Source: Nanobdellota archaeon (GTDB lineage Archaea; Nanobdellota; Nanobdellia; Pacearchaeales; GW2011-AR1). Taken from it: a stretch of DNA of 63,152 nucleotides. The stretch is taken from NCBI GenBank assembly GCA_018818285.1, contig JAHIRT010000032.1:1-63152 (forward strand), given 5' to 3'. The position numbers and the translations under genes were made by a program. Positions 12,457 through 62,181 of this stretch are shown here, piece by piece (positions within the stretch are counted from its first letter, which is position 1; every line of letters starts with the position of its first letter). The notes under the pieces were generated by a model, which was not told where the DNA came from, searched no databases, and was given only the letters and a program-made list of their open reading frames with translations.

Positions 12457-12464
12457 GACAAAAA

Positions 12465-17604: not shown

Positions 17605-17607
17605 ATT

Positions 17608-32607: not shown

Positions 32608-32610
32608 AGA

Positions 32611-33369: not shown

Positions 33370-33407
33370 TATTTTTGGGGTTTATTTAAGTTTATAAATT
33401 TTACTTA

Positions 33408-35155: not shown

Positions 35156-35276
35156 AGAAATTTATATTTTAAAATCTTTTTAAACATTTATATTTGTTAT
35201 TATATACTACAAGAAAAATAATCAACAATTGATTCACTTTATAAAAGTTTAAAAACAATGTGCTGATTTATAGAAT

Positions 35277-36326: not shown

Positions 36327-36367
36327 GTATAGAAAATATATAAAAACCTTAAATCTTATTCTTTGAT

Positions 36368-37042: not shown

Positions 37043-37043
37043 A

Positions 37044-39059: not shown

Positions 39060-39060
39060 T

Positions 39061-40158: not shown

Positions 40159-40175
40159 ATTATTATAGAAGAACT

Positions 40176-41357: not shown

Positions 41358-41361
41358 TTTA

Positions 41362-42909: not shown

Positions 42910-42996
42910 CTTATTTTTTATTGAATGGAGTATTTATTTCTTTTTATTATCTATTATTTGAGATATGTTTTTAAATCAAAATCCCAAATAACAATT

Positions 42997-43980: not shown

Positions 43981-43990
43981 TTATTTTAAT

Positions 43991-45652: not shown

Positions 45653-45693
45653 AGTTAAGTTAAATAAAAAAGGTTTTTATTTGTTTTGTAAAT

Positions 45694-46572
45694 CTATTTT
45701 GTGCTTTCAACCCTCTTCCAGGCATCCTGATATTCTTTTTTTGTGATGAACTTGTAATTTGCAAGAATCCATGTGCAAAATCTGACAGGAAAAAGGAAAA
45801 ATAACCATAAGAATTCTTTTATTGATTTAGGAAAAAATAATATCTCATAAAAATTAAATACTTCATTTGAAAAAGATTTCATTTTTGGAAAATCGCCTGC
45901 ATAATGATAAAGTTTTTCATGGCTTTGCATTGCTCTTCTTCGCTGTTCTATTGTATCTTTTAAATTAGTTGGATATTTCACATAAACAATTGCTTTTTCT
46001 GCATATTTAATTTTGTAATTTTTTTTCCAAAATAATATTGGAATTATTGAATCTTCTGCTACATCTAATGGAAATCTTTTTATGATGTTATTTCTAAATG
46101 CCCAAAGATATCCAGAACATTCAAGGAAATTGTTTTGTTTGTCTCTTTTTTGCCTTAATTTATGAGCAGCATGAGTTAATATATGCGACCAGTAACCTAA
46201 TATATTTTGTTTTGAATTAATAGAAGCAGGCTGTCCAGAGACACAACCAACTTTTTTATCTTTAAATTTTTCTAAAATTTCACTAACAGAATTTCTTGAA
46301 ACAAAAACATCACCATCAGTTAAGATTACTATCTCTCCTTTTAATTTTGGCAAAAGCAAATTAAGAGCATAGCTTTTTCCTTTTCCAGGGTCTTGAAAGA
46401 TTTTTAATTGCTTGTGTTTTTCTGCATATTTTTTTGCAATATCAAGAGTTTCTTTATCAGGAGCAGAGACTATTAGCTCAAATTTTTCTGTTATATCTTG
46501 ATTTAGAAAAGATTCTATGGCTTTTACTATTGTTTTTGGTTCTTTGTAAGATGTTATTATTATTGAGAGCAT
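45694..46572 (-). CDS. family 2 glycosyltransferase
   Basis: LSIIITSYKEPKTI, TDGDV (DxD), a QRRRA-like motif. Confidence 0.82.
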   Translation of the reverse strand: MLSIIITSYKEPKTIVKAIESFLNQDITEKFELIVSAPDKETLDIAKKYAEKHKQLKIFQDPGKGKSYALNLLLPKLKGEIVILTDGDVFVSRNSVSEILEKFKDKKVGCVSGQPASINSKQNILGYWSHILTHAAHKLRQKRDKQNNFLECSGYLWAFRNNIIKRFPLDVAEDSIIPILFWKKNYKIKYAEKAIVYVKYPTNLKDTIEQRRRAMQSHEKLYHYAGDFPKMKSFSNEVFNFYEILFFPKSIKEFLWLFFLFPVRFCTWILANYKFITKKEYQDAWKRVESTK

Positions 46573-46573
46573 A

Positions 46574-48112
46574 TTAAACCTTATACCTCACTTTGTCATA
46601 CCAAACTTTAAAATTTAATGGAAGAGCTCTATAAAATGGCTTTATAATTTTCTCTCTTATATTGTCTGATATTCTAACAAAAAATAAAACAAAATAAGAT
46701 GGTAGAGGATTTTTTAAATTTCTCTTTACTCTTTCTGGAGAAAGCAGAAAATTGAGAAGAAAATTTGGCATTGTTCCAAATCTTTTTTCAGTTACACTTC
46801 CCCTCATTAAGTTTAGAATAAGATTAAGATAAATGTTTTTTTTCTTTAGTTTTATATGCTTTGCCCTGTCCCAATAATTTAACTGGGCAGCAGAATCTTT
46901 TTCTGTTTTTATTATGCCCTCATTTTTTGCCTTATTATAAAGTTTTGAGCCTGTAAAAAAAACAAGATTATTTACAGAAAGAAAATAAGGTTTTGGTAAT
47001 TTCTGCAAAAGATGAATTAGATTGATTATGTCTTCTGGTTTTTCATATGGATTGCAAGCTATTACATCATACATAACCGCAAGTTTATCCTTATATTCGT
47101 TTAATATTTCTCCTGCTCTTAAAACATCTGCATCTGTCTGGTTTCTATGATAAATCCGAAGATTTACTCTTTCACTTCCCTGGATTCCTATTATAATATC
47201 TGTGCAACCTGCATCAACTAATAGTTTTATTTTCTCATTATTTATTGTTCTTGGGTCTCCTAAACATTTAAATCTCATTCTTACTTTTTCTTTGTATAAT
47301 TTACAGAATTTTTTAATGTCTTCTATAGGTCTTAAGGAAAAAGTGTCATCTCTTATATCAAAATAACCTAAACTTGGAAATTTATTTTTCATGTAAAGAA
47401 TTCCTTTGATTATATATTCTGGAGAATGCCATCTCATTATTTTTTTTCTCTTTCCTTTGTAAAGTTCATTAAAAAAATTATTACTGCAATAATCACATCC
47501 ATAAGGACAGCCTCTTCCAGTAAGGAAAAAAATCTGGGCTCCTAAATCTTTTTCCTGAAATTTTCTTATTTTCTTATTTTCAAGAATAAAATGATTTTCA
47601 ATGTCATAATCTGGAAATGGAAGACTGTCAATATTATCTATTATATTTCCAACAGGGTTCTTTATTATTTTTTCATTTTTTTTAATCCACAAATTTTTAA
47701 TCTTATCTATTGTTTTGTTTTTTTCAATAGATTTTGCTAATTCAATCATTGCATTTTCCCCTTCTCCAACACAGACAATATCAGCATATTTTATGCATTC
47801 ATGAGGAGAAATAGTTGCATGAACCCCCCCATAAACAATTGGTGTTTCAGGAAAAAAGTTTTTTAAAAAAGAGATTATTTTATTTGCTCTATGAGATGTA
47901 GATGCATAGGCATTTATTCCTATTAAATCAGAATTCTTGCAGAACTTCATTAACTGCATTAATTCTGAATATGTGTAGTTTCTTGAATAGTCTTCACTTA
48001 AAGTCATAAACACTAATTTCACATTATGCCCTGCATTTTTCAAAACAGAGGAGATTGTTCTTATTCCTTGGTCTGAGGGATAGGTGCATGTTGATATTAA
48101 AACAATATTCAT
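46574..48112 (-). CDS. B12-binding-domain radical SAM protein
   Basis: N-terminal Rossmann-like cobalamin-binding module (IVLISTC...GHNVKLV...GGVHAT), then GRGCPYGCDYCS. Confidence 0.8.
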   Translation of the reverse strand: MNIVLISTCTYPSDQGIRTISSVLKNAGHNVKLVFMTLSEDYSRNYTYSELMQLMKFCKNSDLIGINAYASTSHRANKIISFLKNFFPETPIVYGGVHATISPHECIKYADIVCVGEGENAMIELAKSIEKNKTIDKIKNLWIKKNEKIIKNPVGNIIDNIDSLPFPDYDIENHFILENKKIRKFQEKDLGAQIFFLTGRGCPYGCDYCSNNFFNELYKGKRKKIMRWHSPEYIIKGILYMKNKFPSLGYFDIRDDTFSLRPIEDIKKFCKLYKEKVRMRFKCLGDPRTINNEKIKLLVDAGCTDIIIGIQGSERVNLRIYHRNQTDADVLRAGEILNEYKDKLAVMYDVIACNPYEKPEDIINLIHLLQKLPKPYFLSVNNLVFFTGSKLYNKAKNEGIIKTEKDSAAQLNYWDRAKHIKLKKKNIYLNLILNLMRGSVTEKRFGTMPNFLLNFLLSPERVKRNLKNPLPSYFVLFFVRISDNIREKIIKPFYRALPLNFKVWYDKVRYKV

Positions 48113-48314
48113 ATTTTGTTTAAAAATTGACTGCTTTTAAATATTTTCTCACATAAAATATCCACTTGTAAACATAAGTTTTTTAAATAGATATAGTTAA
48201 TAAAAAAAGAGGTGCAGTGCCTCAGAGCTGCTAATTCTGAGAGATTTAAAAAATGAAAGCAATGAAAACAGGAATTTTTCAAGCATTCATTTTTCAGGGA
48301 GACAAACATAAAAA

Positions 48315-50198
48315 ATGAAAGCAATAATATTAGCTGGTGGAAGAGGAAGCAGACTAAATGAGATTACAAAAGACAGAAACAAAAGCATGATAAAGTTATT
48401 TGAAAAACCCATAATAGAATACAACTTAGAGCAGGCTGTTGAACTGAATGTTAAAGAAATTGTGATTATTGTTGGTTATCGGGCTAATGAAATCATAAAG
48501 TATATTGGAAAAGAATACAAGGGAATAAAGGTAAGTTATGTTTTTCAGAAAAAACAAAGGGGGCTTGTTCATGCAATTGAGTGTGCAAAAAAAGCAATTG
48601 GAAATTCTGATTTTGCTTTAATGCTTTCTGATGAAATAGTGACAAACCCAGATATAAAAGGAATGTTAAAAAAATTCAGAGAAAAAGATTTGTTTGCTTT
48701 TTGTGGGGTTGTTTTTGAAGAAGACAAATCAAGCATTAGCAAAACTTATTCTGTAATGGTTAATAAGGAAGGGAGAGTTTTTCGGCTAATAGAAAAACCA
48801 AGATTTCCCATAAATAATATTAAAGGAACAGGGCATTGTATTCTGAAAAATGAAATTTTAGATTATATTGACAGAACTCCGATTAATGCAAATCGTGGAG
48901 AAAAAGAGCTTGTTGATATGATTCAGGCAGCAATTGATGAAGGTAAGAGAGTAGATATTTATAAACTTGGAGAGGATTATGTAAATGTAAATACTGAAGA
49001 GGATTTAAACTTGGCAAAAGAATTAATAAAGAAAAATAATCCAAAAGTTCTGATTGTGCATACACAAATGAAATTTTTTGGAGGAGCAGAACTGCTTATT
49101 GTTGAACTGGCAAACTGGCTGACAAAAAGAGGGATAAAAAATGATATTCTTGCATTATCAAAAAGCAAGGAAGTTGAAGACAAATTAATTAACACAGAAA
49201 TTATAATCCCAAAACATAAAATTGACTTGCAGCCTCCTGGTTTTAAAAATATAAAAGATATTTTTAAGGCAATAAAGGTTTTTAGGAAAAGTTTAAAAGA
49301 AATAGAAAAAAAATATGATATAATTAATTTTCATGATTTTCCTGTTACATGGAGTTTATGGCCAAGAAAAAAACCTTGTGTTTGGTTTATGAATCTTCCC
49401 CCAAATCTATATAGCAAACCTGATGCTGGATTTTTTTTAAAAACATTAAATAAAATGAGAATTTGGCTTGATAGATTTATTGTAAGAAATAGTGTTGATG
49501 TTATTACTGTTGCTGAAAAATTAAATCAAACAAGAGCAATGCAAAGATATGGTATGAAAGCAAGACTGATTGATTTTGGTGTTAATTATGATTTTTTTTC
49601 AAAAGGAAATGCCAACAAAGCTATTAACAAATGGGATTTAAAAGGTAAATTTATAGTTATCCAATCTGGACAGATAATCAATGTGAAGAACCAGCTTGAA
49701 AGTGTAAAAGCAATTAAAGAAATAAAAAATAAAATCCCAAATGTCTTGCTTATACTTGCTGGAAAAGAAGAAGTGGATTACAGAAAAAAAATTGATGAGT
49801 ATATTAAAAAAAATAAACTTGAAAAGCATATTTTATTTACTGGAAATCTTGTAAGAGAAGAGCTAAGGGATTTATATAAGACAAGTGATGTTGGATTATT
49901 CCCAATAGGAAGACAGGGGGGTGTTCTCGCACCATTTGAATTTTTATGTTCTGGAAATCCAATAATTGTTTCAGAAGATATTGAAACAGCATCGTTAATC
50001 AAAAAAAATAATTTAGGGATTGTCACAAAAGAATATGATAAAGCACTTTTAGGGGTTTATAAAAATAGAGAAAAATATAAGCAACAGGCAAAAAAAGCAG
50101 GATTTTTCATAAAGAAAAACTTGTCATGGGAAATTTTTTCTGATAAAATAATCAAGGTTTTCAAAGATGCCTTGAGAACATATAAAAAAGAGCTTTGA
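48315..50198 (+). CDS. fusion protein: sugar-phosphate nucleotidyltransferase (N) plus GT4 glycosyltransferase (C)
   Basis: The N-terminal part has MKAIILAGGRGSRL...K and the hexose-1-P NTase fold through about aa 240. The C-terminal part has FFGGAELLIVELANWL...LAGKEE...GGVLAPFEFLCSGNP (GT4). Confidence 0.78.
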   Translation: MKAIILAGGRGSRLNEITKDRNKSMIKLFEKPIIEYNLEQAVELNVKEIVIIVGYRANEIIKYIGKEYKGIKVSYVFQKKQRGLVHAIECAKKAIGNSDFALMLSDEIVTNPDIKGMLKKFREKDLFAFCGVVFEEDKSSISKTYSVMVNKEGRVFRLIEKPRFPINNIKGTGHCILKNEILDYIDRTPINANRGEKELVDMIQAAIDEGKRVDIYKLGEDYVNVNTEEDLNLAKELIKKNNPKVLIVHTQMKFFGGAELLIVELANWLTKRGIKNDILALSKSKEVEDKLINTEIIIPKHKIDLQPPGFKNIKDIFKAIKVFRKSLKEIEKKYDIINFHDFPVTWSLWPRKKPCVWFMNLPPNLYSKPDAGFFLKTLNKMRIWLDRFIVRNSVDVITVAEKLNQTRAMQRYGMKARLIDFGVNYDFFSKGNANKAINKWDLKGKFIVIQSGQIINVKNQLESVKAIKEIKNKIPNVLLILAGKEEVDYRKKIDEYIKKNKLEKHILFTGNLVREELRDLYKTSDVGLFPIGRQGGVLAPFEFLCSGNPIIVSEDIETASLIKKNNLGIVTKEYDKALLGVYKNREKYKQQAKKAGFFIKKNLSWEIFSDKIIKVFKDALRTYKKEL

Positions 50199-50203
50199 TC
50201 AAA

Positions 50204-51190
50204 TTAATTATTTCTTTCTATCAGAGTTTTTATGGGATGCTTTCTGAGATTTCTAACCATCTCACATAAAAGAAAACAATTTTCATAACATTTCATTGTT
50301 TTTATTTTATTAATGTAATTTTTTGGGATTGTAAATTTCTTTTTAATATTTCCTAAAGGCGTAATTCTTCCAACTAAATTCTCACAAGGATAAATATCCC
50401 CTGTGTAGTCAATATAAAGAGAGGTGGTTCCCGCATAACAAATATTAGATATTCTTTTATTGCTGTAGAATTTTTTAAAGAATAAAAAATAAGTATAATC
50501 AAAAAACCACCTGTTTCTTTGAGAATAAATTTTTTTCAATTGTTCTAATACAATTTTTTTTTGAAATTCTGTTAATTTTCTATTTTTTTCTGTATTTAAT
50601 CTTTCATATTCTATTTCTGGATTAAACAAAAGATTAAGATTGTGTTTTTTTGCAAAATCCCAGGCCCATAATAGCTGGTTGTAATTTTCTTTTGTTATAG
50701 TGTAAATAAGATTTATGTTTTGTTTTAATTTTTTAAGATTTTCAATTGTTTTAAGCAATTTTTTAAAATTTCCTTTTACTCCCCTTGTTTCGTCGTGAGT
50801 TTTTTCCATACCATTAAAGGAAAGGGTTATCAAAACATCTCTTGGCATATTTTTTACTTTTTTATAAATTGTCTCTGGGAGAAGGGCATTTGTTAAAATT
50901 GTTATGTGTAATTTTTGGTTTTTTTTCTTAAACACATTTATAATTTTGTCTATATCATTTCTCAGAAACGGCTCTCCTCCTGTTAAAACAAGAAATCTCG
51001 CTGATTTGAAAGTGGGCTCATTTGCCATTTTTTTAAAATCATTTATATTTAATTTATCTTTGCTATTATTTTTCCATATAGAACATGTCTTACATTTTGA
51101 GTTGCATCTCGGAGTCACAGAAAGGATAATTCTTCTTAATTTTTTTACTGGAAGGATATTTTCTAGGGCATATAAATAATCTGTTTTCAT
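50204..51190 (-). CDS. radical SAM protein with SPASM/twitch-like C-terminus
   Basis: CNSKCKTC, TGGEP, C-terminal CYAG...GDIYPCEN...CYENCFLLC. Confidence 0.8.
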   Translation of the reverse strand: MKTDYLYALENILPVKKLRRIILSVTPRCNSKCKTCSIWKNNSKDKLNINDFKKMANEPTFKSARFLVLTGGEPFLRNDIDKIINVFKKKNQKLHITILTNALLPETIYKKVKNMPRDVLITLSFNGMEKTHDETRGVKGNFKKLLKTIENLKKLKQNINLIYTITKENYNQLLWAWDFAKKHNLNLLFNPEIEYERLNTEKNRKLTEFQKKIVLEQLKKIYSQRNRWFFDYTYFLFFKKFYSNKRISNICYAGTTSLYIDYTGDIYPCENLVGRITPLGNIKKKFTIPKNYINKIKTMKCYENCFLLCEMVRNLRKHPIKTLIERNN

Positions 51191-52302
51191 TTTTTATAAG
51201 CAGGACATAACTTGCATTCTTCTGGACATTTATTATTTCTTATTGATTTTCTTAGAGCTTTGCATCTTGATGAATACCATATTTTTCTGAAATCTTGTTT
51301 TAATGTATTTCCTAAGGAAGTTGCTTTTTGCCATTCTCTTTGGTTTGCTTCATTTTGAGCACAGCAAGGTGTAATAGTTCCATCAACAAAAATAAAGGGC
51401 ATTATGTATTCCTTGCAATTTTTTATTGGGGGTTTATTTTCAAGTCCTTCTGCTTCTTGTTTTGCAGACATGTTTATTGTTATTGGTATTTTATAGGATT
51501 TTGCCTTGCTCTCAATTTTTTCCACATATTTTTTATCTATGCTCACAACATATTTTTTTGCTTGCTTAAATGAATGAAGCATTGGTGTAACAAGAATCTC
51601 TCCGATTTCTGTGTCAAGAGAATGAACAAAATCAATGAAATCAAGAAGTTCATCCTTGCTTTCAGAAGTTATAATATAATGAAAATTTAAAATAGGGAAT
51701 CTTTTTTTCATTTGTTTTTTTAATTTAACAAATGTTTTTATGTTTTTTTCTATAATATCATAATTACTTCCAACACAAACTTTTTCAAATGATTTTTTGC
51801 TTGCACCATAAGTTGAAACAAACTGAAAATCAGGGCCAATTTCAATTAATTCTTTGATTTGTTTATCTGATTTAAAATGTGCAAAATGATCCATAACTTC
51901 AATGATTGTTCCTCTTGATTTTGCATATTTCAGCATTTTATGAAAATCTGGATTTAGATAAGAAGAGCCAATTCCTGTTAAGCCAAGCCATTTTGGTTTT
52001 CCAAAAGAATCAAATATTTTTTTAAATTGTTCAAATGTCATGTTTTGTGATGGATGTTTCCAGTAGGTATGTTCACAACAAACACATCTAAAATTACAAA
52101 TTGTTGTTGGCTCTATTTCAAGAAAAGGGGGAAATAAATCAATGCCTAATTTTGGAAAAAATTTGTTTAAAAGAAATGCAGAAAACTTATGATTCCACCA
52201 TAAAGGATATACCCAAAACATATTATAGATTTCTCTAAATCTTTTGTCAAGAATATAATTTGAAAAAAGTTTCAGTTTGTGGGCGAAGGACATATTTGGC
52301 AT
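51187..52302 (-). CDS. radical SAM protein with Cys-rich C-terminus
   Basis: CNFRCVCC, C-terminal GTITPCCAQ...CPEECKLCP. It overlaps the downstream rSAM gene by 4 nt. Confidence 0.8.
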   Translation of the reverse strand: MPNMSFAHKLKLFSNYILDKRFREIYNMFWVYPLWWNHKFSAFLLNKFFPKLGIDLFPPFLEIEPTTICNFRCVCCEHTYWKHPSQNMTFEQFKKIFDSFGKPKWLGLTGIGSSYLNPDFHKMLKYAKSRGTIIEVMDHFAHFKSDKQIKELIEIGPDFQFVSTYGASKKSFEKVCVGSNYDIIEKNIKTFVKLKKQMKKRFPILNFHYIITSESKDELLDFIDFVHSLDTEIGEILVTPMLHSFKQAKKYVVSIDKKYVEKIESKAKSYKIPITINMSAKQEAEGLENKPPIKNCKEYIMPFIFVDGTITPCCAQNEANQREWQKATSLGNTLKQDFRKIWYSSRCKALRKSIRNNKCPEECKLCPAYKK

Positions 52303-52396
52303 TTTACAAAAAGAGAGAGATAGGTATTTAAAGATTATTGATTACTGCATAAAGCTTACTGGATAATTTTAAAAATGAGTTGTTTTTCTCTTAAAT

Positions 52397-53551
52397 ATGA
52401 AAATCATACAAATAAGTTCAGCATCATCTTCATTTTCTGTTAAGGATTATGGGGAAGATATTTTTAAGGTTTGGAGTGCAAAGGTTGGGTTTGAATTAAA
52501 GAAAGCTTATCCTAAACTTGATATTGAGTGCTGGACTCCTGAAAAAGAATGCAAACAAGAAAAAGAAATTATGAAAAATGGAATTAAATTCAAGATTTTT
52601 CCAACTGAGTTATCTTTGAGGCATGGAATGGAGATTTGTTTTGGAATGATAAGGGCATTAAAAAAAGAAATGAAAAAAGACAAAAATTTAATACTTCATT
52701 TTCATGAGTATCATTCATGGATTACATATTTGCTTTTATTTTTTGCTGGGAACAAAGTTAAGATTATATGTCAGCATCATGGAGGAAGAAGCCCTATGAA
52801 TAATCTGTTTAAATACAAAAAGCTTTTGATTTTTCTTCCAGCAATATTTTTAATGCAGTTTGCTGAAAATTTATTGTTTAAAAAAGTTGGTATTTTCTAT
52901 GCTCTTACTGATGAAGAAATAAATTATTTGAAAAAGAAAAATTCTGGGAAAATTAAATTTCAAACAATGGGAATTTCTGATGAATATTTTAAAAAACAGG
53001 AAAAAATTGAAATAAGGAAAAAATTAAATTTAGACAATAATAAAAAATACGGAATTTATCTTGGAAGGATAAAAACAACAAAAGGAATAAAAGAACTTTT
53101 AGATGCTGTAAAGGCATTGAAAGACAGGAATTTTGAACTGCTTTTAATTGGAGGGGGTGTTGATTCTGAAAAATACAAAGATTATGCAAACAAAAATAAA
53201 ATAGAAAATGCAAAATTTTTAGGAAATATTTATGGAAATAAAAAAAGAGATTATCTGTCTGCAGGAGATTTTTTAATTCTTCCAAGTTATACAGAAGGTG
53301 CTCCTGTTGTTTTGATGGAAGCAATTGCTGAAAATCTGCCTGTGATAGCAACAAATGTTGGGGGGATAAGAAAAATGATAGAAAATTATAGGGAAGGTAT
53401 AATAATTAACCCGCAGTCAAAAGAGGAAATAATAAATGCAATAAAGGAAATTTTGAAATGGAAAAATAAAAACATAAGAAAATATGCCGAAAAATACAGA
53501 TGGGAAAAAATAATAAAAAATACTATGGAGGATTATAATAAAAAATGTTAA
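52397..53551 (+). CDS. family 4 (GT-B) glycosyltransferase
   Basis: YLGRIKTTKG...IGGG...PSYTEGAPVVLMEAIA. Confidence 0.82.
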   Translation: MKIIQISSASSSFSVKDYGEDIFKVWSAKVGFELKKAYPKLDIECWTPEKECKQEKEIMKNGIKFKIFPTELSLRHGMEICFGMIRALKKEMKKDKNLILHFHEYHSWITYLLLFFAGNKVKIICQHHGGRSPMNNLFKYKKLLIFLPAIFLMQFAENLLFKKVGIFYALTDEEINYLKKKNSGKIKFQTMGISDEYFKKQEKIEIRKKLNLDNNKKYGIYLGRIKTTKGIKELLDAVKALKDRNFELLLIGGGVDSEKYKDYANKNKIENAKFLGNIYGNKKRDYLSAGDFLILPSYTEGAPVVLMEAIAENLPVIATNVGGIRKMIENYREGIIINPQSKEEIINAIKEILKWKNKNIRKYAEKYRWEKIIKNTMEDYNKKC

Positions 53552-54252
53552 TATCAATAATAATTCCTGCATATAATGAAGAAGATAGAATTATAAAAAC
53601 ATTAGAACAGATAGCAGATTATATTAATAAAAGGAAAAAATATAATTTTGAAATTATAATTGTTGATGATGGCTCAACTGACAGAACTTTGGAGATTGTT
53701 GAAAAATTTAAAGAATTAAAGATAAAGCTTCTTCAAAACAAAAAAAATATGGGGAAGGGTTTTTCTGTAAAAAAAGGGATTTTAGAAAGCAAAGGAGAGT
53801 TTGCTTTGTTTATGGATGCGGATTCCTCTACTTCTATAAATGAGCTTGATAAATTTCTGTCTTGTAAAGAAAAACAAGATATATTAATTGGCTCAAGGCA
53901 TTTAAAAGAAAACTCTATTTTAGTAAAACAAAGTATAATAAGAAGAATTGCAGGTTTTTTTGCACACAAATTAATCCATTTCATTATTGTTTCTGACATT
54001 AAAGACACTATGTGTGGATTTAAAATGTTTGATAAAAAATCAAAGATTTTATTTAAAAAACAGCTAAACTATAGGTGGGGTTTTGATTATGAGCTGCTTT
54101 ATTTAGCAGAAAAATTAGGATTTAAAATAAAAGAAATCCCTGTAATATGGAAAGATGATAAAAAAAGCAAAGTTACATTAGCTGGATATCTTACTGCATT
54201 AATAGAATTATTTAAAATAAGATTAAATGATTTTTTAGGAAAATACAATTAA
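53545..54252 (+). CDS. family 2 glycosyltransferase (dolichyl-phosphate glucosyltransferase-like)
   Basis: ISIIIPAYNEEDRI, VDDGSTDRT, MDADSST. Confidence 0.85.
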   Translation: MLISIIIPAYNEEDRIIKTLEQIADYINKRKKYNFEIIIVDDGSTDRTLEIVEKFKELKIKLLQNKKNMGKGFSVKKGILESKGEFALFMDADSSTSINELDKFLSCKEKQDILIGSRHLKENSILVKQSIIRRIAGFFAHKLIHFIIVSDIKDTMCGFKMFDKKSKILFKKQLNYRWGFDYELLYLAEKLGFKIKEIPVIWKDDKKSKVTLAGYLTALIELFKIRLNDFLGKYN

Positions 54253-54253
54253 A

Positions 54254-55114
54254 ATGGTTATGATATTAACAGGGGCAACAAGTTATCTTGGAAAAAATTT
54301 TATTAAAAGTTTTAAAAAAACAGATGATTTGCTCTGCTTTGTAAGAAAAAAAAGCCCTGAAATAAAAGCAAGGCAGGAAATTGTTAATTTTAATGAAAAG
54401 AAAAGTTTTGATGGATTTGTAAATAAAAATGATGTGGTTGTGCATATTGCAGGAATAACAGATGGAACAAAAAAAGAATTATTTGATGTGAATTATAAGA
54501 TCACTAAAAATTTAGTTGATGTTGCAAAAAAGAAAAAAGCAAGGAGATTTATTTTTATAAGTAGTGCAATAGTTGAAATGGAAGAAAAAGGAGATTATGG
54601 AGAATCTAAATTAAAAGCAGAAGAATATATTAAAAAATCTGGAATTGAGTTTATAATTTTGAGACCTTCTTTAATTTACGGCAAAGGTGAAAAAAAGTTT
54701 ATTGGAAAAATTATTTATTTTATAAATAAATACAGAATTGTTCCTGTTATTGGAAATGGAAAATATTCAATAAGAACTGTTTATGCTGGTGATGCTGTGA
54801 AAATAATTGAGAAGAGCATTTATTTAAAAAAAAGAAACAAAGTTTATTATGTTTCAAGTAAAGATGAAATTTCTGTAAATGAAAGATATAAGATTATTGG
54901 TGAGTTAATGAAAAAAAGATTTCTTGTTTTTCATGTCCCAATATTTTTTCTTAAAATAGCTTCTTTATTTATAAGAATATTTAAAAAAGATTTTCCATCA
55001 ATACAGCAACTTACAAGAATAACAAAGCACGAAGATTATGATGTTGATAATACTGAAAAAGATTTTAAAATTAAATTTAAGGATTTTAAAGAGGGAATTG
55101 GAGAGAGTTTGTGA
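54254..55114 (+). CDS. NAD-dependent epimerase/dehydratase (extended SDR)
   Basis: TGATSYLG, YGESK catalytic motif. Confidence 0.8.
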   Translation: MVMILTGATSYLGKNFIKSFKKTDDLLCFVRKKSPEIKARQEIVNFNEKKSFDGFVNKNDVVVHIAGITDGTKKELFDVNYKITKNLVDVAKKKKARRFIFISSAIVEMEEKGDYGESKLKAEEYIKKSGIEFIILRPSLIYGKGEKKFIGKIIYFINKYRIVPVIGNGKYSIRTVYAGDAVKIIEKSIYLKKRNKVYYVSSKDEISVNERYKIIGELMKKRFLVFHVPIFFLKIASLFIRIFKKDFPSIQQLTRITKHEDYDVDNTEKDFKIKFKDFKEGIGESL

Positions 55115-56580
55115 ATAAAATGACAAAAATATTAATACTTAATCCTCCGACAAAAGAAGGAATTTACATTAACAGAGACCAGATGGGGGGAATGGGGCAG
55201 AGACTTTCATTTGGAAAAAGTCTGCTAACTTCTTTTTTAGGAAAAATGAAAAGTTCTTTTATAAGACAACCTGTGTTTCAGTTAGTTTATGCTGCTACAA
55301 TACTTTCTGAAAGCAATGATGTATTAGTCATAGATTCATTAAATGAAAACTTAAGTTTAAATGATATAATTAAAAAAGCAATAAAATTTTGCCCAGAATA
55401 CACAATTATGGCTGTATCTTCATCTGATATTTTATATGAAAGAGATGTTGTAGCAAAAAAAATAAAAGAGTGCACAAAATCAAAAATAATTACAATAGGA
55501 GACACAATTACAAATTCTCCATCTTTATTTAAAGAGCCATTTGACATTTCAATTACTGGAGAAGTTGAAGGAGTTGTAAAAGATATAATAGATAAAAAAA
55601 AATTAAGCAGAATTAGTGGTATTATTTATATTGAAAAAGGAAAAGCGAAGACAAACAAAAGAAAAGAGCTTTTAAATGAAGAGGAATTAGAAAAAATAAA
55701 ATTTCCAAAATGGGAGATTTTTCCATATAAAAAATACAGGTATTATCCTCTGCTTTATAATGAGCCTGCTGTTTCTATGCTTTCTTCAAGAGGATGTCCA
55801 TATGCTTGCTATTACTGCTCTTATTCTAAAAATGAGGGAGAAAAATTAAGAATGAGAAATGCAAAAAATGTTGTTGATGAAATTGAAAATAACATTAAAA
55901 AATATGGAATTAATGGGATTGTTTTTAGGGATCCTCTTTTTACTGGAAACAGAAAAAGAACAAAAGAAGTCTGCAGATTGATTATTAAAAAAAATCTTAA
56001 TATTGGGTGGGCATGTGAAACAAGGCCAGAATTACTTGATGAGGAAATTTTAAAGGAAATGAGAAATGCGGGATGCAGGGCAATTAATATGGGAATTGAA
56101 AGCATAAATGAAAAAGAGCTAAATTCTGTTGGAAGAAATAAAGTTGATTTAAACAAGCTGAAAAAAATAATTGAGTGTTGCAATAAATTAGGAATTAGAA
56201 CAACTGGTTTTTTTATTTTAGGGCTGCCTGAATCAACAAAAGAATCAATGAATAAAACAATTGAATTCAGTTTAAATTCAGGATTAAATCATGCCGAATA
56301 TAAAATTGCAACTCCTTATCCTGGAACAAAATTAAGGGAAATTGCAATAAAGAATAATTGGCTGAAAAATAATAACATAAAAAATCTTGGAGGATATGAT
56401 GCTGTTATGTGCATAAACAAAGAAATAAGTCCAGAATATATTGATAATTTGTGCAACAATTCATTTAAAAAATTTTATTACAGATTTTCTTGGATTTGGC
56501 AAGAATTAAGAATGGGGGATAATCTTAAAAAAGCTAATTTTTTTGTTAAAACAATATTTAGAGTTATGACGGGCAAATGA
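55111..56580 (+). CDS. B12-binding-domain radical SAM protein
   Basis: N-terminal Rossmann-like module, SRGCPYACYYCS cluster. A GTG start overlaps the upstream stop; an alternative ATG is at 55120. Confidence 0.8.
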   Translation: MNKMTKILILNPPTKEGIYINRDQMGGMGQRLSFGKSLLTSFLGKMKSSFIRQPVFQLVYAATILSESNDVLVIDSLNENLSLNDIIKKAIKFCPEYTIMAVSSSDILYERDVVAKKIKECTKSKIITIGDTITNSPSLFKEPFDISITGEVEGVVKDIIDKKKLSRISGIIYIEKGKAKTNKRKELLNEEELEKIKFPKWEIFPYKKYRYYPLLYNEPAVSMLSSRGCPYACYYCSYSKNEGEKLRMRNAKNVVDEIENNIKKYGINGIVFRDPLFTGNRKRTKEVCRLIIKKNLNIGWACETRPELLDEEILKEMRNAGCRAINMGIESINEKELNSVGRNKVDLNKLKKIIECCNKLGIRTTGFFILGLPESTKESMNKTIEFSLNSGLNHAEYKIATPYPGTKLREIAIKNNWLKNNNIKNLGGYDAVMCINKEISPEYIDNLCNNSFKKFYYRFSWIWQELRMGDNLKKANFFVKTIFRVMTGK

Positions 56581-56627
56581 AAATAGGAAATTTTCAAAAT
56601 TTCATTTTTAAAAAACATAAATGAAAA

Positions 56628-58277
56628 ATGAATAAAAAAACAATTTTTTTGATTATTGGAATCTTATTATCTCATTTGATATTTGTAATTCTGTCTATGA
56701 ATCAGCCATTTCACGGAGATGAAATTGTGTTCTCTGAATCTGCAAAGGGTATTTTAAAAACTGGAAAACCAATATTTGATTATAGTGCTTTTGAACCAAA
56801 TTTTCAGGGTTTGTGGCATATTCCTCTTTACAGTTATTTTGTGGCTTTGTTTGTTTTCTTTTTTGGACAAAGCATTTATTCATTTAGAGCTGTTTCTGCA
56901 TTTTTCAATGTTTTAGTGATTATTTTAGTTTATCTTATTTCAAAAGAGATTTTCAGCAAAGAGAAAAATAAAGAAATTTTGTCTTTAATTGCAATGTTAG
57001 TTTATGCACTTAATCCTTTGACAATACAAAGTTCTGTTGTTATGGATATAGACGGAGGATTGCTTAATTTTGCTGTTTATTTGTTTTTGTATTTTTTTAT
57101 AAGAAAAAAGAGTTTTTTTTATCTTATTCCTTCTTTGCTGTTTGTATTTTTGTCAAAAGAAAGCGGACCAGTAATATTATTTATCAGCTTGATGACATTT
57201 TATGTTCTGACATTAAATTTCAAGAAAATTCCTAAAATATTTCTATTGTTTTTTGTTTCTGGGATTTTGTTTTTAATTATTTTTTTGAGCTATTGCAGTG
57301 CATTTGGATTAAACTTTTTAATGCCTCTGGAGCATAATTTCAAGGGAGGTTCTATAAGTTTTATATCATTAATGGTTTCTGCGTGGTCATTTAAAACATT
57401 TTTTTATTTTTCTGTTCCTTTTTTTGTTTTATCATTTTTTATTCTAAGTTTTATTTTTTATTATATGTTCTTTAAAAACAAGGAATTTAAAAAACAGGAG
57501 TGGAAAGATAACAAAATTCTCCTGCTCAATTTATTTGCAATAGTAACAATTTTTTTGTTTTTTTATTTGGGGGCCAGTGGTTGGGGTTTTCCAAAATATT
57601 ATATAACTGCTCTTCCAGCAATGTCTATATTCATAGTGCATAGGCTTTCAAAAGAAAAAATATTTAAAAAAGAATTTTTTAAAAAGAAATTTGTTTTGCT
57701 TGTTTTAGTTTTTATATTATTGTCTTATTTTTTAGTTTTTATTCCATCTCCATTAATGCCTGAATTTGATTCAACTGCGCAGAATGCAGAAATTGCAAAA
57801 TCAGCAGGGCTAATTGGAAAGAGCTTTTGTTTATATTTTATAATTCCTTTTTTTATTTGTTTGATTATTTTTTATTTGCTTAGATTTAAGCATAAAATTT
57901 TAATTAGCTTGATTTTTCTTAGTTTTTTTATGTTTGTTTATTTGAATTCTCTTCATGCTGTTGTTCCTTATTCAACTTATTATAATTATGGTGATATTGG
58001 GGTTTTAGATGTTGTAGATTATTTTAGGAATAACAGCGTTTCAGCAGGACAAATTGCAACTTATCCTCATTTAGGAAGCTATCTTGGAATGTCTGATTAT
58101 TATGAAATAACATGGAGTTATAATGATGAAAATGATTTTAAGGAAAAAATAATTGATAATACTGAAATAGGGTATATTGTTATATACAAAAGAGATATAG
58201 AAAGAATTGGAGAAAACATGAAGTATTTTAAATTAAAAGAAAAAATAGGAAGTTATTATGTTTTTAGGAGAATATAA
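56628..58277 (+). CDS. ArnT/PMT-like GT-C membrane glycosyltransferase
   Basis: Polytopic protein whose first loop has HGDEIVFSESAKG (acidic motif). The 549-aa architecture is like GT39/GT83. Confidence 0.7.
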   Translation: MNKKTIFLIIGILLSHLIFVILSMNQPFHGDEIVFSESAKGILKTGKPIFDYSAFEPNFQGLWHIPLYSYFVALFVFFFGQSIYSFRAVSAFFNVLVIILVYLISKEIFSKEKNKEILSLIAMLVYALNPLTIQSSVVMDIDGGLLNFAVYLFLYFFIRKKSFFYLIPSLLFVFLSKESGPVILFISLMTFYVLTLNFKKIPKIFLLFFVSGILFLIIFLSYCSAFGLNFLMPLEHNFKGGSISFISLMVSAWSFKTFFYFSVPFFVLSFFILSFIFYYMFFKNKEFKKQEWKDNKILLLNLFAIVTIFLFFYLGASGWGFPKYYITALPAMSIFIVHRLSKEKIFKKEFFKKKFVLLVLVFILLSYFLVFIPSPLMPEFDSTAQNAEIAKSAGLIGKSFCLYFIIPFFICLIIFYLLRFKHKILISLIFLSFFMFVYLNSLHAVVPYSTYYNYGDIGVLDVVDYFRNNSVSAGQIATYPHLGSYLGMSDYYEITWSYNDENDFKEKIIDNTEIGYIVIYKRDIERIGENMKYFKLKEKIGSYYVFRRI

Positions 58278-59110
58278 TGCCCGAGCTTTCAATAATCATT
58301 CCAACATATAATGAAGAAAATGATATCTTCAGCAGTCTTATTAGCTTATCAGAACAAAGTTATAAAAATTTTGAGATTATAATTGTTGATGATGGCTCAA
58401 CTGACAGAACTTTGGAGATTGTTGAAAAATTTAAAGAGCAAAACAAAATAAGCATTAAAATTTTAAAACAATTGCATGGCGGTCCTGGAAAAGCAAGGAA
58501 TTTTGGAGCAAAAAATGCAAAGGGAGAAATTTTGATTTTTATTGATGCTGATATGAGATTTGATAAGGATTATTTGAAAAATTTAATAGAACCAATTTTA
58601 AAAACAAGGGGAATTGGAACAACTCATGAATTAGAGCTTGTTAATAATATTAATAATATCTGGAGCAGATGCTGGGGCAGAGTCAGAGTTAGCAAAGAAG
58701 AGGCAAAAGATGTCAAGATATTCAGGGCAATTAGAAAAAAAGAATTTCTTGAACTTGGAGGTTTTGAGCCAAAATATGGATATGCAGATGACCAAACATT
58801 ATGGTTTAAGTATAAAATAAAGCCAATAGTTGCAAAAAATACTATTTGCTATCATAAAAATCCTGAAACTTTGAAGCAGGTTTTTAAGCAATCAAGATGG
58901 ATTGGAGCAAGCCATGATGCAGGATTAATTAAGTTTGCTATGATGATTATTTTTTTTCCTGTGCTTATTCCAATATTAAGCATTAGAAAATCCTGGAAAA
59001 ACAAAGATTTTTCAATATTTCCTGCAATGATTATATTTATGACGGCAAGATATTTTGGGAATTTAGCAGGATATTACAGAAAGATATTTTGTAAAGAGAA
59101 TATAAAATAA
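58277..59110 (+). CDS. family 2 glycosyltransferase
   Basis: LSIIIPTYNEENDI, VDDGSTDRT, IDADM. Confidence 0.85.
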   Translation: MPELSIIIPTYNEENDIFSSLISLSEQSYKNFEIIIVDDGSTDRTLEIVEKFKEQNKISIKILKQLHGGPGKARNFGAKNAKGEILIFIDADMRFDKDYLKNLIEPILKTRGIGTTHELELVNNINNIWSRCWGRVRVSKEEAKDVKIFRAIRKKEFLELGGFEPKYGYADDQTLWFKYKIKPIVAKNTICYHKNPETLKQVFKQSRWIGASHDAGLIKFAMMIIFFPVLIPILSIRKSWKNKDFSIFPAMIIFMTARYFGNLAGYYRKIFCKENIK

Positions 59111-59143
59111 TGTAAATTTAAATAAATAGGATTGAAAATTTCT

Positions 59144-60748
59144 TTAAGTTTCTATTTTTTTGTATAAAATTTCTTTTATTCTTTTTTTTAATTCCCGCAA
59201 TCCCTGAAGTTTAGAATAATATCTATAACCTAATTTTTGAATAGGACTAACAATAAAAAATCTCTTAAGGCAATGTCTGCACAATGTAAAAAATCCATAA
59301 TCCCATCTGCTGTATATCTCGCAATTTTTATACTCAAGGGGTTCTTTGCAAAAAGGGCAGTCTACTTTAAAATCATATCTTTTATTTTTTCTATGTTTTA
59401 CTGATTTTGGAGTGATATACTTGCAATAATTTCCCATAGCATCTAATACCTCTGTCCTTAATTGTTTTATTTCCTTATCAGTCATATTATCAGTTATATT
59501 CAACCAATGGTCCCTATGGATCTTATTTTTTATAAAATCTAATTTGTCTGTGATTATTCTCTTTTTAAGACAATGCCGGTAGATTTCTGAGTTTGGGTAT
59601 GGCTGAATAAATCCCAAACCTATTTGCCCTTTTGCATTTTTCTTCCACCAATCAAGGGTTTCTTTTGCTGTTTCTTTTGTTTCTGCAACATCTCCAAAAA
59701 TAAAATTACCTACGACACCCATTTTTAATTCTAGTGTTTTGAAAAAAGCATCTTCAATTAATTTTGGAGTGATTGGCTTTCTCATGCTTTTCAAAACTTC
59801 AGGACTCATGCTTTCAAAACCATAACTTAAAACAAGACATCCTGAATCTCGCATCATTTTTAAAACATCTCCATTAACTCTTAATACAGACATTTGAACA
59901 ATCCATCTTAAATCCCAATCAAGTTCTTCCCTGTATTTTTTTATTTTTTTACAAAAATCTTTTAATCTTTTCATGTCTAATGAAAAACATTCAGCATGTA
60001 TAATTAAAACATTTATTTTATATTTTTTAACTACACTTTTTATTTCTTTCATAATGTTATTAATGGTTCTTTCCCTAAATTCTGTATCATGATAGCAAAA
60101 AGTGCAGTGAAATGGACAGCTTCTGCTTGCTAATAAATAATAAGGGCGCGGGAAATCAAAAAAATGAGTTGTATGATGAAGATTGCAGGGAACATTATTT
60201 AAATATTCTTCATATTCAAAAGACCTGTAATCTGGAAATGGAAGTGCATCTAAATTTTGGATAGGTTTGCGAGTTCCTGTAAAAATAGTTTTATCTTCTT
60301 TAAATACAAGCCCTTTTACTTTGCTTAAGTCTCCTTTTTTTTCTAAACAATCTAATAATTCTACAATTGTTTCTTCTCCTTCTCCTATCACAGCAAAATC
60401 TGCTTTTAAATCATCAAAAATCAATTTAGGTTCGCTTGAGATTAATGGCCCTCCTAAAATTATTTTTGGGTTAGTTCTATGGCTTTTTGCTGCAGCGATT
60501 ATTTTCTCTAAATGACCATATCCATAAGCAATTGTTCCTGTGAGAATATAATCATATTTTTTCTTATCAAAAGCTTTATGCAAAATTTCCCTTACAAGCC
60601 CATCATTATGATTTAAATTTAAATAATCTAATTTATATCCTGCTTTTTTTAAAGAAGCACTTATGTAAGCCAAACTTAAAGGAGTAAAATATCTGTAATC
60701 TTTTTTATCTGTAAAAGAAAATCTGGGGGTTATCATTAATAATTCCAT
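59144..60748 (-). CDS. B12-binding-domain radical SAM protein with C-terminal zinc-ribbon-like motif
   Basis: N-terminal Rossmann-like module (ILGGPL), SRSCPFHCTFC cluster, C-terminal CPFCKE...CRHC. Confidence 0.8.
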   Translation of the reverse strand: MELLMITPRFSFTDKKDYRYFTPLSLAYISASLKKAGYKLDYLNLNHNDGLVREILHKAFDKKKYDYILTGTIAYGYGHLEKIIAAAKSHRTNPKIILGGPLISSEPKLIFDDLKADFAVIGEGEETIVELLDCLEKKGDLSKVKGLVFKEDKTIFTGTRKPIQNLDALPFPDYRSFEYEEYLNNVPCNLHHTTHFFDFPRPYYLLASRSCPFHCTFCYHDTEFRERTINNIMKEIKSVVKKYKINVLIIHAECFSLDMKRLKDFCKKIKKYREELDWDLRWIVQMSVLRVNGDVLKMMRDSGCLVLSYGFESMSPEVLKSMRKPITPKLIEDAFFKTLELKMGVVGNFIFGDVAETKETAKETLDWWKKNAKGQIGLGFIQPYPNSEIYRHCLKKRIITDKLDFIKNKIHRDHWLNITDNMTDKEIKQLRTEVLDAMGNYCKYITPKSVKHRKNKRYDFKVDCPFCKEPLEYKNCEIYSRWDYGFFTLCRHCLKRFFIVSPIQKLGYRYYSKLQGLRELKKRIKEILYKKIET

Positions 60749-60784
60749 TTTACCTGTAATTTGATATTTTTTGCATTTTTTAAA

Positions 60785-62104
60785 TTAAAATCCATGTTTT
60801 TCTAAAATATGAGCATCTTCAGTTTCTTTTCTTGTTTTTTCTTCAAATTTAATATGATTAAGAATTAAATTTTTTAGTTTTTCAGAAATTTCTTTGTCAG
60901 AATTTATTATATTTTCCTTTTCTTTTGGGTCATTTTTTAAATTAAAGAGTTCATCTTTTCCGTTTTGTTTATGAATATATTTATAATCTCCATGAATAAT
61001 TGCAATTCCTTGGATAGTTAGATCATATTTCAAATTTTCAATGCCTGAAACAAATCTTCCATCTCTTTTTCTTGCATCTTCACTAAAAAAATACTTTCTT
61101 TTAAATTTAAGCAAACTCTCGCCAAAAAAACTTTCTGGTTTTTTAATTTTGAGGATATCCAGAATTGTTGGAGATAAATCTAAAAAACTAACTGGAGTGC
61201 TGATTGTTTTTGGTTCTATTTCATTACCAAGAATCATTAAAGGAACATGAATATTTTCTTCATAAAAATCAGGTGTATGTCCAAAAAAACCTTTTTCATA
61301 AAGCATCTTTCCATGGTCGCCAAAAACAATTAAATAAGTATTATCCAATAAATTATCTTCTTTAAGTTTCTTAATAAATTCATCAATATATTTATCTGTT
61401 CTGTTTAAATCAAAGGCATATAAATTTCTGATTGTTTTAATCTCTTGCTCATTAAGTTCTTCTTTTGTTTTAAGAAGATTGCAATTTGCATTTATTAATT
61501 CTTCTGTAGGAGCACCTTCACAATAAGGTTCGTGGGAGCCTTCTAAATGTATGTAAATAAAAAGTTTTTCTTTTTTGTTTTCTTTAATAAATTCCAAGGC
61601 ATTTTTTAATTGATTTTTATCATTTTCTCTGCCTTTTGCTTTTTCAATATTTTTCTTTAAATATAACCGCCTATAAAATTCTCTGGCTTTTGGAAATGAC
61701 TCACCAATCTTTGTTTTAATTTTCTCTGATAGGGATTTATTTGGTGCTCCTAAAACACAAAGAAATTTATCAAATCCCTTATCAAAACCAAAAAATGGTG
61801 ATAACCACCCACCCATAACAAATGCTCCTGTTTTGTAATTATATGTTTTTAATAATTTTGCTATTGTAATTGAATCAGAAGAAATAGCAATACTATCATT
61901 ACACATTAAAGGATAGGAGGAAGTAAACAAACCTTTAACTGCTGGGGGGCTCCAAGGACCTAAAGAATAAGCTTTATTAAAATACATCCCTTTTTTAGAA
62001 AGATTATACAAACAAGGAGTTATTTTTTTTTCTAAAAAATCATTTCTAAAACCATCAACAACAAGCATTATAATATTTTTCATATTACATGAATATTTTT
62101 TCAA
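60785..62104 (-). CDS. alkaline-phosphatase-superfamily protein (sulfatase/phosphodiesterase-like)
   Basis: IIMLVVDGFRNDF metal-site motif, nucleophile-region WSPPAVKGLFTSSYP (not CxPxR), distal FGDHG. Confidence 0.7.
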   Translation of the reverse strand: MKKYSCNMKNIIMLVVDGFRNDFLEKKITPCLYNLSKKGMYFNKAYSLGPWSPPAVKGLFTSSYPLMCNDSIAISSDSITIAKLLKTYNYKTGAFVMGGWLSPFFGFDKGFDKFLCVLGAPNKSLSEKIKTKIGESFPKAREFYRRLYLKKNIEKAKGRENDKNQLKNALEFIKENKKEKLFIYIHLEGSHEPYCEGAPTEELINANCNLLKTKEELNEQEIKTIRNLYAFDLNRTDKYIDEFIKKLKEDNLLDNTYLIVFGDHGKMLYEKGFFGHTPDFYEENIHVPLMILGNEIEPKTISTPVSFLDLSPTILDILKIKKPESFFGESLLKFKRKYFFSEDARKRDGRFVSGIENLKYDLTIQGIAIIHGDYKYIHKQNGKDELFNLKNDPKEKENIINSDKEISEKLKNLILNHIKFEEKTRKETEDAHILEKHGF

Positions 62105-62181
62105 TTTAAAAAGATATCTCTCTTATACAGAGGGTTTCAATATAACAAAGTTTAAATACATTTCTTTTTAAAATTAAGTAT

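Follow-up and report, generated by a model that had tools for sequence, protein, structure and literature searches.

Class-B-type radical SAM enzymes of three distant families in a glycan-biosynthesis cluster of a DPANN-type archaeon

We analyzed a 63,152-nucleotide stretch of DNA from a Nanobdellota archaeon (contig JAHIRT010000032.1), called the window hereafter, which carries three genes for class-B-type radical S-adenosylmethionine (SAM) enzymes, named R1 (46574-48112), R2 (55120-56580), and R3 (59144-60748). The reading that we favor, with a probability of roughly 0.55, is that the three proteins belong to three old, separate families that tailor sugars in a cell-surface glycan cluster of DPANN archaea, R1 and R3 being cobalamin-dependent and R2 being AprD4-like. 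R1-R3 are thus uncharacterised members of known enzyme kinds, which most likely decorate sugars rather than remodel lipids. The most notable features of the window are the gene cassette in which R2 is embedded and the strongly conserved module that accompanies R1.

All three proteins contain a Radical_SAM domain and a CX3CX2C cluster motif (GRGCPYGCDYC in R1, SRGCPYACYYC in R2, and SRSCPFHCTFC in R3), which agrees with the membership of the class-B-type superfamily proposed in an earlier, sequence-only reading of this DNA. The three open reading frames (ORFs) listed there exist, the public gene call for R2 starting at ATG 55120. The prefix GCP(Y/F), given there for all three, is found in R1 and R2 but is replaced by SCPF in R3. 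The word paralogs, also used there, is misleading, because the pairwise identity of R1, R2, and R3 is only ~25%, at which recent paralogy was rejected. The three are distant members of one superfamily, each in its own old orthologous family, and the orthologues of each family are widespread in metagenome-assembled genomes (MAGs) of Nanoarchaeota, Woesearchaeota, and Pacearchaeota. A curated NCBIfam cut-off was reached by none of the three, all scores lying far below, so that no named equivalog family applies; the scores against HpnJ (TIGR03471), for example, are 194.4 bits for R2, 117.6 bits for R3, and 77.2 bits for R1, with a cut-off of 577.6 bits. Membrane anchoring was likewise rejected, because a hydropathy scan revealed no hydrophobic segment in R1, R2, or R3.

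R1 (512 amino acids, (-) strand) was characterized by Pfam, a family alignment, and an AlphaFold2 (AF2) model. Its N-terminal B12-binding-type Rossmann domain scores 54.9 bits against PF02310, the Pfam B12-binding family with a gathering score of 32.1 bits, and is accompanied by a Radical_SAM domain (PF04055, 57 bits) with the cluster motif CPYGCDYC at residues 202-209. Previous studies indicate that the hallmarks of base-off cobalamin binding are at least one Gly on β4 and a Gly-Glu at the start of α5 (PMC9204698). In the R1 family alignment, YGG95-96 is kept with both G95 and G96 invariant, and GEGE116-119 is kept with G116, E117, and E119 invariant. The AF2 model (predicted local distance difference test, pLDDT, of 93) finds its best fold matches in the PDB among the cobalamin enzymes TsrM, QCMT/MgmA, CysS, OxsB, and TokK, with fold-alignment identities of 13-17%, and AprD4 ranks lower. 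Because R1 passes PF02310, keeps the Gly-Gly and Gly-Glu motifs, and matches the folds of cobalamin enzymes, we infer that it is most likely cobalamin-dependent. More than 120 database clusters contain relatives whose identity to R1 over the full length is 70-77%. The names of its outgroup relatives, from Edwardsbacteria and Parcubacteria MAGs, are limited to the generic "radical SAM protein".

R3 (534 amino acids, (-) strand) shows the same arrangement in Pfam, in PDB sequence matches, and in its family alignment. It scores 60 bits against PF02310 and 56.7 bits against PF04055, with the cluster motif CPFHCTFC at residues 211-218, and its PDB sequence matches are QCMT (9CCB, E 8e-11), AprD4 (6FD2, E 5e-8), and CysS (E 7e-8). 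In the family alignment, where the relatives are ~46-57% identical, LGG99-100 contains a near-invariant G99 and an invariant G100, and GEGE122-125 contains the invariant E123 and E125. Since PF02310 is passed and the Gly-Gly and Gly-Glu motifs are conserved, R3, too, is most likely cobalamin-dependent. The B12-binding module that the sequence-only reading assigned to all three proteins therefore stands for R1 and R3, but R2 has no PF02310 match.

R1 and R3 share the cobalamin-type Rossmann domain, the radical SAM barrel, and the Gly-Gly and Gly-Glu motifs with TsrM, TokK, CysS, QCMT/MgmA, and OxsB, and differ from these solved enzymes at their C-termini and in their cysteines, respectively. 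R1 possesses a distinct C-terminal extension of ~100 amino acids (residues ~410-512), which is near-invariant in the family, predicted to be helical, and unmatched among solved structures; it is exemplified by LNYWDR..H..LKK.N.YL.LILNLMRG, and its final stretch reads WYDK.RY.V. The R3 family possesses four additional invariant C-terminal cysteines, C464, C467, C490, and C493 (CPFC ... CRxC), which resemble a zinc ribbon or a site for an auxiliary metal and are unusual in class-B radical SAM enzymes.

R2 ((+) strand), an AprD4/HpnJ-like radical SAM enzyme, was examined by Pfam, NCBIfam, PDB searches, and an AF2 model. The ORF listing gives 489 amino acids from GTG 55111, overlapping the upstream stop codon, whereas the public gene call gives 486 amino acids from ATG 55120, which is probably the true start. 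The Radical_SAM domain scores 85 bits, and the cluster motif CPYACYYC occupies residues 229-236 of the 489-residue ORF. By sequence, the nearest solved relative is AprD4 (6FD2), with an E-value of 8e-41 against 2e-7 for the runner-up and ~40% identity across the 235-residue radical SAM core. By fold, the AF2 model (pLDDT 93), in which an N-terminal β-α-β domain is present, again matches AprD4 best (rank 1), over the full length, with template-modelling (TM) scores of 0.76/0.81 and an E-value of 1.5e-29, whereas the cobalamin-dependent enzymes reach query-normalised TM scores of 0.56-0.65. AprD4 is reported not to bind cobalamin despite its Rossmann-related domain (PMC12931638). Because AprD4 is the nearest relative both by sequence and by fold, R2 is most likely, by analogy, a cobalamin-independent AprD4-like enzyme. 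Clustering with non-cobalamin radical SAM enzymes, an outcome that the sequence-only reading had itself named as contrary to its proposal, was found for R2 only, closest to AprD4. The R2 family comprises ~70 database clusters at 39-69% identity and, in a profile-profile alignment, has a 27-residue insertion after β1.

R2 is part of a cassette of four (+)-strand genes. The first gene (53545..54252) encodes a small glycosyltransferase of family 2 (GT2) of 235 amino acids, which resembles polyprenyl-phosphate sugar synthases: its best PDB match is the dolichyl-phosphate-mannose (Dol-P-Man) synthase of P. furiosus (5MLZ, E 2e-15, residues 1-202), with GtrB and ArnC further down, and it has weak full-length NCBIfam matches to PpgS, a Dol-P-hexose transferase, and PgfS, all under their cut-offs. 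The second gene (54254..55114), directly upstream of R2, encodes an oxidoreductase of the extended short-chain dehydrogenase/reductase (SDR) type of 286 amino acids, which matches Epimerase, 3Beta_HSD, and RmlD_sub_bind. Its invariant residues include T6, G7, and G13 of the nucleotide-binding loop and the catalytic S103, Y115, and K119, and in the window its stop codon and the first codon of R2 are no more than a few bases apart. The last gene (56628..58277), following R2, encodes a GT-C-like membrane protein of 549 amino acids with ~10 hydrophobic segments, which matches PMT_2 weakly (23.6 bits, where the gathering score is 26.1 bits).

Comparisons of the window with four orthologous loci (L002, L004, L005, and L030) indicate that the small GT2 and an SDR accompany R2 in all five. 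A GT-C gene was found at R2 in the window and in L002, L004, and L005, where PMT/PMT_2 genes flank the R2 orthologues, and was not detected in L030. The metagenome matches to R2 include at least one close orthologue (L030) and at least 79 distant relatives at 23-37% identity, which serve as supporting evidence for the GT2 association only. In L002, a gene of the GDP-mannose-dehydratase/epimerase type adjoins the R2 orthologue (10449-12578, 709 amino acids) and has a faint LAGLIDADG match in mid-protein; it may be an intein-containing sugar dehydratase.

The arrangement suggests an AprD4/AprD3-like deoxygenation that feeds a lipid-phosphate-sugar glycosylation route. AprD4, which carries out the C3'-deoxygenation in apramycin synthesis, works with the NADPH-dependent reductase AprD3 (PMC5461906). 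R2 is similar to AprD4 in core sequence, in whole-chain fold, in the adjacent dehydrogenase/reductase gene, and in its sugar context, but AprD4 serves an aminoglycoside pathway, whereas R2 is encoded in a glycan cluster of an archaeon, together with a GT-C and a GT2 of the Dol-P-sugar-synthase kind. By analogy, the window SDR is a candidate reductase partner of R2, and its likeness to AprD3 is one of gene position and description.

In the mechanism that we propose, R2 would act on a dolichyl-phosphate-linked hexose, as its neighbors, a GT2 similar to Dol-P-sugar synthases and a GT-C, suggest. The 5'-deoxyadenosyl radical of R2 would take a hydrogen from a sugar carbon, the vicinal hydroxyl would then be eliminated to yield a keto-deoxy sugar, and the adjacent SDR would reduce this product as AprD3 does for AprD4. 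The GT-C would finally transfer the modified sugar to an acceptor at the outer face of the membrane, which is the weakest link of the scheme. R1 and R3 may perform radical C-methylation, the default of their class, at an unactivated sugar carbon, and their target may be either the growing glycan or a sugar bound to a nucleotide or a lipid. Sugar C-methylases of class B include GenK, GenD1, and MoeK5 (PMC9204698).

The pairing of a small GT2 with a multi-span GT-C/PMT_2 protein is shared with several known systems, such as Dpm1/PMT, GtrB/GtrC, ArnC/ArnT, and PgfS/PgfM. In the Arn route, as proposed for the cassette, a sugar is altered before its transfer by the GT-C, and in the mycobacterial decaprenyl-phosphate-arabinose (DPA) route a sugar is also modified before GT-C transfer. 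The cassette differs from these three-component systems in that its GT2 and GT-C are separated by a radical SAM gene and an SDR gene; its substrate would, judging by this gene context, be linked to a lipid. In the literature that we searched, we found no description of such an arrangement.

R1 belongs to a second module of the same type, composed of R1, a GT2, and a GT-C together with a nucleotidyltransferase-GT4 fusion and two radical SAM/SPASM genes. The GT2 (45694..46572, (-) strand, 292 amino acids) is located 1 nucleotide downstream of R1; it matches Glycos_transf_2, Glyco_tranf_2_3, and Glyco_transf_21 in Pfam, and its best PDB match is the archaeal GT2 6YV7. The third gene of the run is a PMT_2-type GT-C membrane glycosyltransferase (43991..45652, (-) strand, PMT_2 86 bits, ~10 hydrophobic segments). 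Divergent from R1 lies the fusion of an AglF/RmlA-like sugar-1-phosphate nucleotidyltransferase with a family 4 glycosyltransferase, GT4 (48315..50198, (+) strand, NTP_transferase and Glycos_transf_1), which in NCBIfam scores highest against AglF (160 bits). Beyond it are the two radical SAM/SPASM genes (50204-51190 and 51187-52302, (-) strand), which match Radical_SAM and SPASM in Pfam.

We surveyed 19 GTDB loci with a full-length R1 gene from Nanoarchaeota-type MAGs. The partner GT2 lies downstream of R1 in 16 of the 19 at 38-61% identity, and a GT-C follows R1 and the GT2 in L006, L012, L015, L017, L019, L020, and L021. The nucleotidyltransferase-GT4 fusion adjoins R1 at 62-68% identity in L006, L009, L013, L015, and L016, and several loci contain the SPASM genes close to R1, with 65-76% identity. 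At 62-76% identity among MAGs of Nanoarchaeota, Pacearchaeota, and Woesearchaeota, the R1 module is unusually well conserved across the lineage. One Pacearchaeota MAG (L014) contains two R1 copies (8001-9527 and 11912-13441), each ~71% identical to the R1 of the window and ~2.4 kb apart.

The surroundings of R3 are more variable. R3 is convergent with another GT2 (58277..59110, (+) strand, 277 amino acids, Glycos_transf_2 117 bits), and its orthologues are situated in sugar clusters of variable content, among whose products are a flippase, a DegT aminotransferase, a hexapeptide acetyltransferase, a GFO_IDH oxidoreductase, thiamine pyrophosphate (TPP) enzymes, and further radical SAM proteins. 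Orthologues of R1 and R3 occur together on contig JAQTST010000001.1 (623 kb). The GT2 or GT-C adjacency noticed in the sequence-only reading is therefore borne out at each gene: R1 heads an R1-GT2-GT-C run, R2 lies by the SDR and the GT-C-like gene with GT2 genes at 53545 and 58277, and R3 is convergent with a GT2.

Beyond the favored reading, we advance a more specific and tentative proposal, which is more apt to fail than to hold: the GT2-SDR-AprD4-like-GT-C cassette may deoxygenate or rearrange a Dol-P-hexose at the membrane before its transfer to the cell surface, and the R1 module may build a lineage-wide envelope glycoconjugate on cobalamin scavenged from hosts or the community. If the cassette works in this manner, a radical deoxygenation step would be added to the lipid-phosphate-sugar/GT-C scheme, and AprD4-type chemistry would be extended from antibiotic pathways to archaeal envelopes. 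AprD4 was once called the only known radical SAM dehydratase (PMC5461906).

Several observations count against the AprD4-like assignment of R2 and the chemistry built on it. The proposed chemistry rests on analogy, because no curated NCBIfam cut-off is reached. HpnJ is the best and longest hidden Markov model (HMM) match of R2, with 194 bits over nearly the full length, slightly above the AprD4 model NF033070, which scores 169.4 bits over residues 198-436 of the core only, against a cut-off of 500 bits. AprD4 contains CPYPCRFYC (CX3CX3C), whereas R2 retains CX3CX2C with a gap of one residue in the alignment. R2 also keeps one β4 Gly, the invariant G127, the first Gly of Gly-Gly being lost, together with G147-E148, and PF02310 is matched by about half of the R2 orthologues, the two inspected ones weakly. 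The SDR in L002 is of a different type, with 25% identity. Moreover, nucleotide-sugars are an equally possible substrate of the SDR or of R2, in which case the SDR might operate upstream of the GT2.

Many of these points would fit R2 as a rearrangement enzyme of the HpnJ/OxsB type, possibly cobalamin-dependent, that contracts or rearranges the sugar ring, while the SDR serves another step, such as the supply of a nucleotide-sugar donor. HpnJ converts bacteriohopanetetrol (BHT)-glucosamine to a cyclitol ether alongside the GT2 HpnI, and it is the best NCBIfam match of R2 and a strong match of R3 (118 bits); hpn clusters also hold an SDR (HpnA) and GT2 genes, and the window SDR has a weak HpnA match of 31 bits. 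However, the scores of R1, R2, and R3 are far under the HpnJ cut-off, the hopanoid pathway is absent here, and the comparison with HpnJ is one of HMMs only. AprD4 is clearly the nearest solved relative of R2 by E-value and the nearest by fold, and the tight, translationally coupled SDR-R2 pair mirrors AprD3/AprD4. We therefore regard the rearrangement enzyme as unlikely, although dehydration has a serious rival in an HpnJ/Cds-like contraction of the ring by R2. The Gly-Gly motif was rejected as a discriminator for R2: only the first Gly is lost and the Gly-Glu is kept, which gives no clean separation, and cobalamin binding by R2 is doubtful from sequence motifs alone.

A role in lipid remodelling was the second possibility raised in the sequence-only reading. 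On this account, one or more of the three enzymes would remodel the head groups or cores of host-derived lipids, for example by a Cds/HpnJ-like contraction of a glycolipid hexose to a cyclitol or by a Grs/Gmm-like modification of isoprenoid chains. The top NCBIfam matches are indeed HpnJ for R2 and a ladderane-lipid B12 radical SAM model for R1 (91 bits), HpnJ and Cds act on lipid-linked sugars with HpnJ following the GT2 HpnI (PMC13459092), and B12-radical SAM Gmm homologues occur in a few DPANN genomes (PMC11214058). GrsA/GrsB and Gmm are archaeal B12-binding-type radical SAM proteins with the same general layout as R1-R3; the Grs layout of Rossmann domain, TIM barrel, and C-terminal helix is alike, and R1 carries a long, conserved helical C-terminus. 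Nevertheless, the scores against the lipid models are far under the cut-offs (194 versus 577 bits for HpnJ and 91 versus 360 bits for the ladderane model), and no cut-off of a lipid enzyme is reached. The Tes model (NF045702) is not matched by R1 or R3 and is not among the 25 best families listed for R2; the sole Tes match listed is the SPASM gene at 50204, with 47 bits against a cut-off of 450 bits. The conserved neighbors are all genes of glycan assembly (nucleotidyltransferase, GT4, GT-C, and flippase), no lipid-synthesis gene is present at the compared loci, and R1-R3 lack hydrophobic segments. The context of R1-R3 is therefore glycan assembly, not lipid synthesis. The proposal of lipid-core modification is not upheld, and we consider lipid remodelling as a whole quite improbable; a glycolipid head-group role retains some probability because the R1-partner GT2 passes the Glyco_transf_21 model (ceramide-glucosyltransferase-type), a lipid-glycosyltransferase-like domain, and because Grs, Cds, and Gmm were compared by description only.

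The supply of the cofactor also speaks against the favored reading in its cobalamin part. According to published surveys, Woesearchaeota rarely possess the complete pathway for cobalamin (PMC8421398), and DPANN are missing from the archaea named as having all of it (PMC11459464). The lineage is thus reported to lack cobalamin synthesis, and the 63-kb window contains no domain for cobalamin synthesis, salvage, or transport and no cobalamin riboswitch. On the weakest of the alternatives, which we judge very unlikely, none of the three enzymes uses cobalamin and therefore no cofactor scavenging is implied, the Rossmann domains being relics, binders of other ligands, or substrate positioners as in AprD4 and ArsL; class-B-like enzymes without cobalamin binding are known (PMC12931638), but R1 and R3 score well above the PF02310 threshold, the Gly-Gly and Gly-Glu tail motifs are conserved across both families, and the R1 model matches cobalamin-bound structures ahead of AprD4. 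With R1 and R3 as cobalamin enzymes, scavenging of the cofactor is plausible, and its source may be a partner, as the sequence-only reading supposed. Cobalamin auxotrophs that carry cobalamin-dependent enzymes are common among prokaryotes.

The glycan-biosynthesis supercluster (31819..62943, no strand assigned) was delimited by Pfam and NCBIfam scans and spans ~31 kb. It encodes six GT2, three GT4 (one being the fusion described above), and one GT9 heptosyltransferase-like protein, as well as three multi-span GT-C/PMT_2 membrane glycosyltransferases in addition to the GT-C-like protein at 56628-58277, which is just under the PMT_2 threshold. Seven radical SAM genes are present: R1, R2, R3, three of the SPASM type, and one at 33408-34610. 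The other genes encode an RfaE-domain-II-like adenylyltransferase, two methyltransferases, two SDRs, a DUF362-ferredoxin fusion, an alkaline-phosphatase-superfamily ("sulfatase") protein, and a protein similar to 3'-phosphoadenosine-5'-phosphosulfate (PAPS) reductase. The unusual-sugar possibility of the sequence-only reading is in keeping with this context of GT2, GT4, GT9, GT-C, nucleotidyltransferase, methyltransferase, and SDR genes.

DPANN of the Woese/Pacearchaeota type have tiny genomes and are thought to be attached to or dependent on other cells, and their surface glycans are probably central to this contact. Such a reduced genome here devotes ~31 kb and seven radical SAM genes to glycan tailoring; this investment and the 70-77% identity of R1 across the lineage point to surface sugars that are unusual in their chemistry and under strong selection. 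If R1 and R3 use cobalamin, a concrete vitamin dependency of these organisms would follow, and if the R1 module needs scavenged cobalamin, B12 would be a hidden dependency of Woese/Pacearchaeota surface biogenesis. The earlier claim of novelty for DPANN goes too far: DPANN MAGs supply tens to hundreds of members to each family, Gmm homologues have been reported (PMC11214058), and public databases already contain the R1-R3 families, labeled with generic names. In the literature that we searched, no paper connected class-B radical SAM enzymes with the glycan clusters of DPANN.

A DPANN-type origin of the window is well supported. The window is archaeal, with an archaeal RNase P RNA (7059-7442), the small subunit of replication factor C (RFC), S10, L11, Spt5, Tyw1, and diphthamide synthase; it further encodes cysteinyl-tRNA synthetase, FtsZ, and SepF and has a GC content of ~28%. 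The nearest homologues of R1, R2, and R3 carry the names Nanoarchaeota, Woesearchaeota, or Pacearchaeota.

Within the supercluster, Pfam identifies a gene (39061-40158, (-) strand) whose product joins a DUF362 domain to a 2x[4Fe-4S] ferredoxin. Homologues of this fusion recur beside class-B radical SAM genes in the unrelated metagenome loci L082, L093, and L096 and upstream of R1 in L019; the fusion protein is a possible electron donor to radical SAM enzymes. The "sulfatase"-family gene (60785-62104, (-) strand) is co-directional with R3 and adjoins the PAPS-reductase-like gene (62182-62943, (+) strand, Pfam/NCBIfam). Because it lacks the C/S-x-P-x-R formylglycine motif, it probably encodes another transferase or hydrolase of the alkaline phosphatase superfamily. 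A sulfatase with a maturase of the anaerobic sulfatase-maturating enzyme (anSME) type was accordingly rejected as the reason for the SPASM genes. At the other end of the supercluster, in the region 32611-35155 ((-) strand), the radical SAM gene 33408-34610 has weak viperin and MoaA-like matches and lies between a classical SDR (adh_short) and the RfaE-domain-II-like heptose-1-phosphate adenylyltransferase, and the GT9 heptosyltransferase-like gene lies at 35277. With the RfaE-like and GT9 genes in the window, heptose genes of the bacterial lipopolysaccharide (LPS) type therefore occur in an archaeon.

Elsewhere in the window, Pfam yields no match at the thresholds applied for a run of ORFs (11464-18273, (+) strand), which includes one of 838 amino acids at 14324-16840. 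The tRNA-Phe (94 nucleotides, 7905-7998) and the tRNA-Pro (86 nucleotides, 23708-23793) both exceed the standard length, which suggests introns. Finally, the ORF at 30799-31353 ((+) strand) encodes a Sigma-70 region 4 helix-turn-helix domain (48 bits) on this archaeal contig.

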